A program made the position numbers and the translations under genes. Shown here in pieces: positions 18,009-36,119 of a DNA stretch of 36,119 bases. The notes below the pieces were generated by a model. It made no database searches and was not told the DNA's origin. It worked only from the letters and a program-made list of their open reading frames with translations. Source of the DNA: Chloroflexota bacterium. GTDB taxonomy: Bacteria > Chloroflexota > Dehalococcoidia > Lucifugimonadales > JADFKI01. Position 1 is the stretch's first letter. Every line of letters starts with the position of its first letter. The DNA is taken from contig JAQBUT010000028.1 in assembly GCA_027623195.1 (NCBI GenBank), forward strand, positions 1 to 36,119. The letters run 5' to 3'.

Positions 18009-18128
18009 CCTTTGGTGGTTCTAGCGAGGTGGACCCACCCGTTCCCATCCCGAACACGGCAGTGAAACACCTCAGCGCCTACGATACTGCATCCGCAAGG
18101 GTGTGGGAAAATAGGTCACCGCCAGGGG
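18009..18128 (+). rRNA. rrf: 5S ribosomal RNA (stand-alone)
   Basis: Conserved CACCCGTTCCCATCCCGAACACGGCAGTGAA, GATACT and GGGAAAATAGGT segments; terminal helix TTGGTGG/CCGCCAG. Ends approximate. Confidence 0.95.
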
Positions 18129-33747: not shown

Positions 33748-34032
33748 ATGACCACAGATGTCGAAGGGCGCTACGCCACCATGATTCGCGATCTGCCTCA
33801 GGGCGAGCGCCCCAGGGAGCGTTTGCGCGATTATGGCCCAAGCTACCTGAGCAACTCGGAGCTTATCGCCATACTGTTGCGGGTCGGTTCGGAAGGCGAG
33901 AGCGTGCTGACGCTGGCTTCGCGAGTGCTGGCCACGTTTGGGGGCCTGGGCGGCTTGGGCAAGGCAACCTATGGCGAGCTCTGCAACCTGCACAGCATCA
34001 GCGACGCCAAGGCATGTCAGCTCCATTTATAG
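33748..34032 (+). pseudogene. radC: RadC (UPF0758) 5' fragment interrupted by an integrated element
   Basis: ERPRERL...LSNSELIAILLRVG...AKACQL, then an abrupt stop; the C-terminal JAB domain (HNHPSG) is missing. Confidence 0.9.
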
Positions 34033-35629
34033 GCAGCTTATTCAATCCACTTTCCATGGTGTCACCGGGCTCCACGAGCATGGTCACTTCGATAGTCTCA
34101 CCTATCACAACTCTCGAAACCATGGATCTCATGACATCGCCCCTCTCAGCCTCAGTGAGTTCATCCAGTCTGGAAGCTATGGTCCGGGCATTGGCGGTAA
34201 AGGATTCGACCATCATGGCCTTGTGTTCCAGGTTACGAAGTTCAGCGTCCATGCGGTCCAGGTCCCTTGAATGGAACTCTCGGCGCTCGGTTATGGACTT
34301 CATGCGTTTGTCCCTTTCAGCATCAGTCATGTAGCCCCGCTGGTGGGAATCTAGTATTCGCTCCCTCTCCGCATCAAGGCTGCTCAATTCTGCTCTCTTG
34401 ACCTCCAGGTCTTTCGATGTCCCGGTCTCCTTGAACTCCCTGCGACGTTCCTCAAGGAGTTCAAGCACTAGCTGGGGGTTGCGGAGGACGGAGGCGACCT
34501 TATCCCAGACGGCCCTCTCTAGCTTGCCTGCGCCTATACTCCGGCGTTCGCATTGAAAGCCCTCAATCCCCCTTCTCCCGGTACGCCCTTCTATACAGGT
34601 GTACCACCTGTCTGGGGTGACCCTGGGGACTTTGAACTTGGTGCCGTCAGCGCGCTTTTGGTAGCGGTAGCGGCTGAGGTTGTGGACGAAACGTTGACCG
34701 CAACTGGCGCAGAAGGTGAGGCCAGCGAGGGGGAAGTTGTCACGGTGCTTTGCGTCGGACTTGGTGCCCTTGAATCGTGCCTTACGGTCCTGGGCAGCCT
34801 CCCAGACTGTCTCATCAACTATCGGGGGGTGAGGTATGAGAATCCAGTCGGAACGCTCAGTCTTTTCTCGAATCTTGGAGTCCCCGGGACCCTCTCGGGA
34901 TGATGTCTTGTTGTAAAAGCCCTTTCCGATGTAAGTCTCCTTATCCAACATTTGCATTAGGCTGGCTCTCACCCAGACTCCACCGCTGCGAGTGTAGATT
35001 CCATCCCGGTGGAGACCCTCAATAACCCGCGGGACAGGCGTACAACCGACGTATTCCTGGAATACCCGCCTGACTACGCTTGCCTCAGGTTCGTAGATTT
35101 CGGGCTTGCCGTCCTTGCCTTTGACATAACCATAAGTAACCTTGTCGGAATTGAGTTGCTGTCTGTGGGCCCTTCCTTCCGCACCCATCCGTGACCTGAC
35201 GGACTTAGTCTCGCTCTCTGCCTCGGCCACCAGGAGCCACATTCCGAAAGCCAGGCGATTATTAACGGTGTTGCCTTCCACGATGGAATAAAACTCCGTG
35301 CGGGTCATATCCATCGCCTCACGGAGTCGGTAGCCGATGTAAGGGCGTCGAGACAGCCTGTCCAGCTTCCAAACTACCACGATGTCGAATTGGTTCTCCG
35401 TCACCGCCTGGAGCATGGCGTTGAAGGCTGGGCGATTCACTTTCCTACCGCTTATGCCCGGGTCCTCGAAAAAGGTCAGTTCGTAGTCGTTATCCTGGCA
35501 CCAGGACTCTATGGATTGGCGCTGCTCAGTGAGGCTGTATCCGGACCTAACCTGCTCCTCTGTCGATACCCTGAGGTAGGCTGCCGCCCTTTTTCGCTGC
35601 GGTGGATTCTTTTCAGGGTAAGTAATCAC
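33998..35629 (-). CDS. Large serine recombinase (resolvase, recombinase and zinc-ribbon domains)
   Basis: Catalytic YLRVST, RPAF, DRLSR, YGY, YIG, LAGLTFCASCG...YTC...C and a coiled coil. Start set at GTG 35629 after AGGAGG. Confidence 0.95.
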   Translation of the reverse strand: MITYPEKNPPQRKRAAAYLRVSTEEQVRSGYSLTEQRQSIESWCQDNDYELTFFEDPGISGRKVNRPAFNAMLQAVTENQFDIVVVWKLDRLSRRPYIGYRLREAMDMTRTEFYSIVEGNTVNNRLAFGMWLLVAEAESETKSVRSRMGAEGRAHRQQLNSDKVTYGYVKGKDGKPEIYEPEASVVRRVFQEYVGCTPVPRVIEGLHRDGIYTRSGGVWVRASLMQMLDKETYIGKGFYNKTSSREGPGDSKIREKTERSDWILIPHPPIVDETVWEAAQDRKARFKGTKSDAKHRDNFPLAGLTFCASCGQRFVHNLSRYRYQKRADGTKFKVPRVTPDRWYTCIEGRTGRRGIEGFQCERRSIGAGKLERAVWDKVASVLRNPQLVLELLEERRREFKETGTSKDLEVKRAELSSLDAERERILDSHQRGYMTDAERDKRMKSITERREFHSRDLDRMDAELRNLEHKAMMVESFTANARTIASRLDELTEAERGDVMRSMVSRVVIGETIEVTMLVEPGDTMESGLNKLPINGADMPWRR

Positions 35630-35660
35630 GACTAACGCCTCCTGTCGGCAAATGTGAAAT

Positions 35661-35788
35661 AAAAAAAAAGCCCGCCACTTTGCTGGAAGCAGCGGGCTTT
35701 GAAATGCTAAAATTATCCCGCCGTGCCTGTTAACTCCAGGTGTGGCCACGCCTCGGGGTGTTTCAGCACCGCCGGGGCCATTTCTTAT
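35661..35788 (-). ncRNA. Candidate structured leader / small RNA upstream of the recombinase, ending in an intrinsic terminator
   Basis: Lies between a consensus promoter and the RBS. Contains two hairpins, then an AAAGCCCGC/GCGGGCTTT stem with a 9-U tract. Confidence 0.65.
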
Positions 35789-35794
35789 GACATG

Positions 35795-35823
35795 AGTATA
35801 TGGGGCATCGACTATAGAGTCAA
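35795..35823 (-). promoter_or_regulatory. Sigma70-type promoter directed toward the recombinase
   Basis: Minus strand TTGACT (35823-35818), 17-bp spacer, TATACT (35800-35795). Confidence 0.8.
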
Positions 35824-35852
35824 TTCCATGATGAACCGGGTGGAGGCCAATT

Positions 35853-36119
35853 GGTTCTGTTGCAAAGCTTTGGGTAGTCCGATAACGTCATTGCACAGTA
35901 CTCGAAAGTATGGAGCATCTCTGTGACATTTGTTGCGTCAGACAAGCCCTTCAAAGGTCGCCATTCCGAGGGGCAGGTCATCATCCTATGCGTGCGGTGG
36001 TACCTGAGATACTCACTCAGCTATCGAGACCTCAAAGAGATGATGACTGAACGAGGTCTTGAAGTAGACCACACCACAATTTATCGCTGGGTCCAGAGCT
36101 ATGCCCCCGAGTTAGAGAA
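35853..36119 (+). mobile_element. IS6-family insertion sequence, left end (truncated by window end)
   Basis: Terminal sequence GGTTCTGTTGCAAAG at 35853-35867 matches the IS6/IS257-type inverted repeat and is followed by a transposase start. Confidence 0.9.
35923..36119 (+). CDS. IS6-family transposase, N-terminal part; absent from the ORF track
   Basis: Manual translation MTFVASDKPFKGRHSEGQVIILCVRWYLRYSLSYRDLKEMMTERGLEVDHTTIYRWVQSYAPELE; GGAG upstream of the GTG. Confidence 0.93.
   Translation, partial: MTFVASDKPFKGRHSEGQVIILCVRWYLRYSLSYRDLKEMMTERGLEVDHTTIYRWVQSYAPELE

Follow-up and report, generated by a model that had tools for sequence, protein, structure and literature searches.

Many integrative elements are driven by large serine recombinases, enzymes that also find wide use in genome engineering, although to our knowledge the natural control of their expression is poorly known. 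Here we analyse a stretch of 36,119 nucleotides (nt), called the window throughout, which comprises positions 1 to 36,119 of contig JAQBUT010000028.1 from the Chloroflexota genome assembly GCA_027623195.1 (class Dehalococcoidia). Near its right-hand end, on the minus strand, lies a large serine recombinase gene (the integrase) preceded by a structured leader. A first-pass annotation of the window had read this leader as a same-strand RNA switch that works through short loop-target pairings. From comparison with relatives we instead infer, and consider fairly probable, a two-strand module that would control the integrase by countertranscript-driven attenuation; transcripts, pairing and raised termination are alike predictions from sequence.

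The recombinase carries three Pfam domains (Resolvase, E 7.8e-28; Recombinase, E 5.4e-17; Zn_ribbon_recom, E 2.5e-08), and its closest NCBIfam models are CcrB, CcrC and XisF, all of which score far under their cut-offs. The leader is predicted to start near 35788 and is a noncoding stretch of about 130 nt. It holds two hairpins (P1 and P2) and an intrinsic terminator that sits between the promoter and the integrase ribosome-binding site (RBS), a layout that is the same in relatives (Table 1). The promoter TTGACT-N17-TATACT, hairpin 1, the small hairpin CCUG/CAGG and the terminator with its nine U residues are all present where the first-pass annotation had placed them, and promoter, hairpins and terminator are conserved with compensatory changes. 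Its further proposal, that CGGCGGG is complementary to CCCGCUG of the terminator 5' arm, so that an antiterminator and the terminator just before the integrase RBS would exclude each other, is likewise supported.

The same annotation had left room for a known Rfam motif. A cmscan search of 35400-36119 at E<=10 gave no family match, including none to C4 or c4-a1b1. Against Rfam 15 at that threshold the window leader reached no gathering score and gave only weak matches, the best being rnk_pseudo (20 bits against a gathering score of 55), aligned chiefly over the terminator. In the loci of 26 relatives the motif was unmatched at E<=1, as it was in viral and phage loci; the above-gathering matches in those 26 loci were three tRNA genes (L162, L172 and L173), none of which overlaps the motif.

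Table 1 Features of the integrase leader and adjoining genes, in window coordinates.
Feature	Coordinates	Strand	Basis or remark
Sense leader promoter: -35 TTGACT (35823-35818), 17-nt spacer, -10 TATACT (35800-35795)	35795..35823	-	10/12 consensus matches
A-rich leader 5' end; plus strand reads as U-rich tail CAUUUCUUAU	35780..35789	-	
Hairpin 1 (P1): loop CUGAAA on a 4-bp inner stem, then bulged C35771 and a 7-bp outer stem that contains one C.A mismatch; read on the plus strand, the predicted antisense RNA's GC-rich terminator hairpin	35750..35778		
Conserved linker GUGGCCA joining hairpins 1 and 2	35743..35749		(Near-)invariant in alignments A3, A4 and A7
Hairpin 2 (P2): core CCUG/CAGG 35740-35726; plus-strand extension gives a 10-bp hairpin, 35720-35746	35720..35746		
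Antiterminator 5' strand CGGCGGG; partner CCCGCUG (35696-35690) in terminator 5' arm	35717..35723	-	
Leader intrinsic terminator: 14-bp stem 35700-35667, loop UUCCAG, U9 35666-35658	35658..35700	-	
Predicted antisense promoter: extended -10 TGCTAAAAT, hexamer 35708-35713	35705..35713	+	Predicted start near G35720
Predicted antisense RNA (countertranscript), about 69 nt, with a hairpin at its 5' end, a spacer and a terminator hairpin that leads into a U-rich tail	35720..35789	+	
Integrase RBS AGGAGG (35643-35638) and GTG start codon (35629-35627)	35627..35643	-	
Large serine recombinase gene, 543 amino acids	33998..35629	-	Pfam domains
5' part of interrupted radC	33748..34032	+	Pfam UPF0758_N, E 1.2e-25

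Two further copies of the leader were used with that of the window to build a first covariance model. One is a partial, intergenic copy in the same genome (G000, contig C11:111611-111739; L002 1425-1553, minus strand), 83% identical to the window leader over 54 nt and 73% over 103 nt; the other, from a genome of the same genus, has its own promoter, TTGACA-N17-TACCAT. This model matched in 40 of 151 genomes sampled from the window's order, often several times per genome, and a second model matched in 12 of 151 class-level and 10 of 151 phylum-level sample genomes, each count including the window's own genome. A pattern scan of species-representative genomes returned at least 119 stretches, and the 80 titles listed are all Dehalococcoidia or Tepidiformaceae metagenome-assembled genomes. 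A metagenome pattern scan gave 121 matches, mostly chance ones in coding DNA of high GC content; a hairpin filter retained 22, of which about 16 looked genuine by eye.

A serine recombinase homologue on the same strand follows 84 of the 91 aligned copies; the distance from the RNA to its start is 25-77 nt, apart from one case of 338 nt. No recombinase stands within the available flank of six copies, and for one of these (L004) that flank is only 59 nt. The window recombinase falls in another clade than the main group, whose members are 62-100% identical to the L009 protein over about 290 amino acids, and the comparisons support a leader conserved before homologous and non-homologous serine recombinases. 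By eye, CTTTGAC-N17/18-TAnnAT stands at a fixed upstream distance in nearly all copies. Farther upstream, 15 main-family copies have genes of the YhcG/DUF1016 (3), NYN (1) or DUF3800 (1) families or of no family (10); such neighbours are variable cargo, and hence no conserved protein regulator adjoins the leader. In two order-level matches, L031 and L033, the leader precedes calcineurin-like metallophosphoesterase genes and the antisense hexamer is GATAAT.

The main family forms four helices: P1 (11 base pairs with a bulged C), P2, a third helix (P3) and the terminator. Alignment A4 has 93.1% of its cells paired and changes on both sides in 16 of 32 pairs, and 0 of 500 shuffles reach either value. 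Alignment A7 comprises 69 sequences, including divergent, metagenomic and viral members. There, 91.1% of the cells in P1 and P2 pair, compared with 73.3% in shuffles; both sides change in 13 of 17 pairs, including six of the six in P2, and the covariation score is 0.390 versus 0.096, which 0 of 500 shuffles reach. Covariation of P1 is seen on both A4 and A7, and sliding the partner columns in A7 cuts pairing to 22-60%.

The mismatches within these helices differ by strand. What reads as an A.C mismatch on one strand becomes a G.U wobble when the complementary strand is folded, and in P1 of A7 (756 cells) we counted 45 A.C/C.A cells versus a single G.U, so that A.C/C.A accounts for 45 of the 47 non-Watson-Crick cells. 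The corresponding counts in P2 are 40 versus 3, with A.C/C.A making up 40 of 59 non-Watson-Crick cells, and the pooled counts are 85 versus 4. Of the 17 pairs, 13 contain A.C/C.A cells and 3 contain G.U cells; of the 69 sequences, 56 and 4 do so, respectively. P1 of A4 has 50 A.C/C.A cells versus 0 G.U. G.U on the sense strand is frequent in P3 (35 cells) and in the terminator (96 of 865 cells). Because A.C is abundant and G.U nearly absent in P1 and P2, these two are maintained as opposite-strand hairpins, whereas P3 and the terminator, with their common G.U, are maintained on the sense strand. The variation of P1 and P2 in A7 does not fit sense-strand folding, in which G.U would be tolerated and A.C avoided. 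The C.A mismatch of hairpin 1 in the window itself reads U.G on the plus strand, and across the family the antisense core folds more stably than the sense core in 53 of 68 sequences.

The flanks of the two hairpins resemble the ends of a plus-strand transcript. A conserved sense motif 10-15 nt after P2, spelt ATTGTA, ATTCTA, ATTATA, ATGCTA, ATTTTA and in other ways, corresponds to TAnnnT on the antisense strand, and only its -10-critical positions are fixed across the family. In 128 of 141 loci the distance from P2 to the end of the antisense TAnnnT is 9-13 nt (10 nt in 95 and 11 nt in 23), and in one more it is 15 nt; the hexamer occurs in 25 spellings, and control windows gave 1-24 of about 140. 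By eye, TGn precedes the antisense hexamer in nine of ten window-type relatives. At the other end, beyond P1 as folded on the antisense strand (hairpin 1'), the next 10 nt hold a mean of 4.05 T versus a background of 2.09 across the 141 loci, and five or more T are found in 28% versus 4%. The antisense RNA predicted for the window folds into two clean hairpins at -33.6 kcal/mol (z -3.25; 1 of 200 shuffles equally good). These features suggest that the trans-acting RNA is most likely the convergent antisense transcript rather than a released sense leader.

On its antisense strand, the partial copy on C11 keeps an extended -10 that is perfect, TGATATAAT, together with a hairpin that has AUUUUUUAU after it, and its sense promoter and terminator are degenerate (all by eye). 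It lies between CoA-transferase-like and epimerase-like genes with no integrase nearby, and may be a stand-alone antisense RNA gene or the relic of a lost element.

On the sense strand, folding bears on the choice between antiterminator and terminator. For a nascent leader that stops with the last base of the terminator 5' arm, the minimum free energy (MFE) structure contains CGGCGGG:CCCGCUG at -32.8 kcal/mol. The full leader favours the terminator, with an MFE of -52.5 kcal/mol (z -3.44; 1 of 200 shuffles equally good) versus -43.3 kcal/mol when the antiterminator is forced, and when the antisense-covered bases of the window leader are kept unpaired only the terminator forms. In all seven window-type leaders a run of 6 to 9 nt in the segment after P2 is complementary to the terminator 5' arm, in several spellings.

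In the mechanism we propose, the strong minus-strand promoter would start the leader, and CGGCGGG, just 3' of hairpin 2, would pair with the terminator 5' arm to permit read-through into the serine recombinase gene. Inside the antiterminator loop, the extended -10 TGCTAAAAT would start the opposite-strand RNA of about 69 nt, composed of hairpin 2', a spacer and hairpin 1' with a U-rich tail as its own terminator. By pairing with the nascent leader, this RNA would tie up both hairpins as well as part of the antiterminator strand, which would let the terminator form and end transcription about 30 nt before the integrase start codon. The expected outcome is that integrase would be kept low once the element is established and would be made in a burst on entry to a cell without the antisense RNA.

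The same P1-GUGGCCA-P2 module also occurs with a second arrangement, in which a Shine-Dalgarno sequence lies in the P2 loop (33 of 44 viral-contig matches by eye, together with some metagenome contigs and phylum-level matches) and the start codon mostly follows 2-6 nt after P2. In these relatives the loop of the antisense hairpin would carry an anti-Shine-Dalgarno sequence and block translation. We scanned 35 downstream open reading frames for families. HNH/His-Me-type endonucleases (HNH_3, HNH and Endonuclease_7) account for 13, several of them with NUMOD4 or AP2; the others comprise two tyrosine integrases and one each of a serine recombinase, Cas1, a winged-helix protein and a metallophosphoesterase, leaving two with sub-threshold matches (GIY-YIG and NinG) and 14 with no family. 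The module is likewise present in the deposited phages Gordonia Spooky, Squiddly and Malisha and Microcystis MinS1, at annotated HNH endonuclease genes. For gene 31 of Gordonia phage Spooky (L348 1186-1263), the ATG at which the deposited HNH coding sequence begins precedes the P1-P2 module. The arrangement conserved in relatives, a Shine-Dalgarno in the P2 loop and then a GTG, suggests that the true start is the GTG at 1264, about 26 codons further downstream.

Several observations weigh against attenuation by an antisense RNA. A -35 match is absent from the predicted antisense promoter in the window, and many members of the main family have a weak U-tract downstream of hairpin 1'. From a start at 35720 the antisense RNA would cover all of P1 and P2 but only 35723-35720 of the antiterminator strand, that is, four of its seven bases. 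When the window leader is folded as a prefix to the end of the terminator loop, the antiterminator is absent from the MFE structure (-34.8 versus -33.8 kcal/mol). Covariation support for the antiterminator is modest: the complementarity between the post-P2 segment and the 5' arm in the seven window-type leaders has an own mean of 7.43 and a cross mean of 6.55, and 191 of 5000 permutations reach the own mean. In the main family P3 adjoins the terminator without overlapping it, and prefix folding of 87 sequences predicts no single conserved antiterminator; at least 75% of the 5' arm is paired upstream in 23 of the 87 MFE structures, with varying partners, and with the antisense-covered bases masked the arm is paired that far in none. 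Finally, A4 and A7 were fitted to the model structure, which favours that structure in their pairing and covariation values.

The same-strand switch of the first-pass annotation, in which the hairpin-1 loop would pair with UUUUAGCA and UUCCAGCA, in cis or as a released RNA of about 130 nt, in the manner of phage P4 CI and P1 C4 RNA, has become very improbable. The complementarities on which it was built are present in the window: the apex UGCUGAAA can form eight pairs with UUUUAGCA, one of them G-U, and matches the terminator loop at 7 of 8 positions. By eye, a UGCU(G):(U)AGCA match also recurs among several relatives with UAGCA, with 8 pairs in the window and in L093, 6 in L245 and 5 in each of L004, L248, L249 and L090. 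They do not exceed chance, however, as 442 of 2000 shuffles of the downstream RNA that preserve dinucleotides give a run of at least 8, and they do not covary, the own value across 87 distinct relatives being 5.02 versus a cross value of 4.96, with 49 of 200 permutations reaching the observed one. Part of the supposed loop (UG) lies inside the P1 stem, the main family has UACUAC, unmatched to the apex, instead of UAGCA, and no C4-type family was matched at E<=10. UAGCA is accounted for by the antisense TGnTAnnnT, and UUUUAGCA is better read as the reverse complement of the opposite-strand extended -10 box TGCTAAAAT. Comparisons of other loops gave own versus cross values of 4.24 versus 4.04 for P2-P3, 3.30 versus 3.16 for P2-terminator and 5.75 versus 5.45 for the P3 loop with the region after the terminator; in none of the three tests did any of the 200 permutations reach the observed value, and we attribute these tiny excesses to relatedness.

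A sense-strand sensor, that is, a riboswitch or protein-binding leader with P1-GUGGCCA-P2 as its binding domain and no antisense RNA, would account for the strong conservation of the junction nucleotides (the bulged C, GUGGCCA and YGAC) and for the joining of one module to two expression platforms, a terminator and a ribosome site in P2; the unrelated downstream proteins would suit a universal host signal. We nevertheless consider it unlikely, since near-absent G.U and abundant A.C in P1 and P2 are the opposite of what a sense-strand RNA helix would show, the downstream motif varies exactly as a -10 box does, and there is no Rfam match. The strand preference could also be met by bottom-strand hairpins acting as a single-stranded DNA site of recombination or replication, comparable to integron attC or the ends of IS200/IS605, as such folded sites also show strand-specific hairpin selection and an extrahelical base, and the neighbouring genes encode DNA-cutting and DNA-joining enzymes. 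That role is very unlikely given that a -10-like hexamer with constant spacing and a U-rich tail are marks of a transcript, that the module lies within a promoter-to-gene leader and in many members carries the ribosome site in its P2 loop, and that the radC junction in the window is at the opposite end of the integrase gene. Either of these two readings explains fewer observations than antisense attenuation. Least probable of all, in our judgement, is a free-standing sense small RNA gene of about 130 nt that merely adjoins an independently expressed integrase. The unit does have its own promoter and strong terminator, and there are copies without a downstream integrase (L002, L004, L031 and L033), but the roughly 30 nt from the U-tract to the start codon are filled by the RBS and leave no room for a promoter, 84 of 91 copies keep their distance to a serine recombinase, and relatives put the same module directly on the start codon.

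Four other candidates were tried and rejected. A likeness to 5S rRNA (UGAAACACC, CCACCUG) failed, as the genome's own 5S gene is unlike the leader and RF00001 misses the leader; that gene lies in the window at 18011-18127 on the plus strand (RF00001, 94.7 bits). Likeness to the NAD+-I riboswitch (ACANCCCC) is unsupported by any Rfam match. A pseudoknot GUGGC:GCUAC between the linker and the downstream motif is contradicted by the linker variants GCGGC, AUGGC and ACGGC, which by eye are uncompensated, and a leader peptide that began at the main family's AUG beyond P2 would meet a stop at codon 3 in some members (by eye).

The integrase is part of an element inserted in radC. The N-terminal part of radC adjoins the element at the 3' end of the integrase gene, and the part encoding the RadC catalytic region is on a separate contig (C62:2-358), at the edge of that 2.6-kb contig; this split assigns the integrase to the radC-inserted element. 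An IS6-family element (35853-36119, plus strand) starts about 30 bp upstream of the leader -35 box. It opens with GGTTCTGTTGCAAAG at 35853-35867, which we take to be the IS6 terminal inverted repeat, and the N-terminus of its transposase, from 35923, matches NF033587 (E 1.4e-22). As the contig ends within this IS6 element, the remainder of the integrative element was not assembled with the window. Elsewhere, divergent copies of the leader in L162, L172, L173 and L004 lie about 120-400 nt from tRNA genes, a tRNA-Sec in L162 and, by eye, a tRNA-like 3' end in L004; such proximity fits the integrase-proximal ends of elements inserted at tRNA genes. Two metagenome relatives, L245 and L249, have TTGACAGCATCATGACAGCATC in common about 40-70 nt past the leader terminator, which could be a second promoter or an operator.

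Countertranscript-driven attenuation is known from plasmid rep genes, such as RNAI/RNAII-repC of pT181 and RNAIII of pIP501 and pAMbeta1. As in pT181 and pIP501, a promoter-proximal leader here can fold ahead of the RBS into either an antiterminator or a terminator helix; a small, fully complementary antisense RNA, with a convergent promoter inside the leader and its own terminator hairpin, is predicted, and by analogy its pairing would be expected to favour the terminator. Unlike them, the leader is without a sequence or Rfam relationship to these systems and its target is the serine recombinase of an integrative element rather than a replication initiator. The antisense module also occurs with a translational platform, before homing endonucleases, tyrosine integrases and Cas1, and its hosts here are Chloroflexota (Dehalococcoidia) and actinophage-like viruses. 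The mobile element pCF10 of Enterococcus faecalis similarly has convergent promoters and an antisense RNA that terminates a nascent leader; it differs in controlling pheromone-linked conjugation genes and is unrelated in sequence. Its prgQ/Anti-Q system is the subject of PMC3181467.

The relatives with a ribosome site in the P2 loop are closer to pMV158 RNAII-repB (PMC4485353), to R1 CopA/CopT and to IS10 RNA-OUT/RNA-IN, the last of which likewise limits a mobility enzyme. The window copy differs from these translation blockers in having a terminator platform. Phage P4 CI and P1/P7 C4 RNA are likewise small RNAs from mobile elements, and they too end transcription early or block expression in a leader, but they are processed from the same strand and act on short repeated sites, whereas the evidence here favours an opposite-strand transcript. 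In the literature searched, and in passages of PMC5737381, PMC8040213 and PMC3146451, we found no description of the leader motif, although the supplementary tables of these papers could list it. The mechanism class is known; what appears to be new is the family, with its target genes and its two expression platforms.

Taken on its sequence features, the system is most likely plasmid-style antisense attenuation applied to integrases, with antisense translational control applied to homing endonucleases. A wider idea, which we hold to be speculative and rather unlikely, is that of a portable antisense-RNA cassette, made up of the sense promoter, P1-GUGGCCA-P2 and the convergent antisense promoter, common to serine and tyrosine integrases, Cas1 and phage homing endonucleases of Chloroflexota and actinophage-like viruses, serving as an establishment or copy sensor, with stand-alone genes such as that on C11 conferring immunity in trans. 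If true, such a cassette would permit a burst of enzyme in a cell without the antisense RNA and silence it afterwards, and the stand-alone antisense genes would amount to RNA-based immunity against incoming related elements. Methodologically, the ratio of A.C to G.U mismatches can reveal the functional strand of a conserved hairpin. If confirmed, antisense control of the integrase would extend countertranscript-driven attenuation beyond plasmid replication control, offer a compact natural switch for synthetic use and give a testable account of low, entry-triggered integrase expression.

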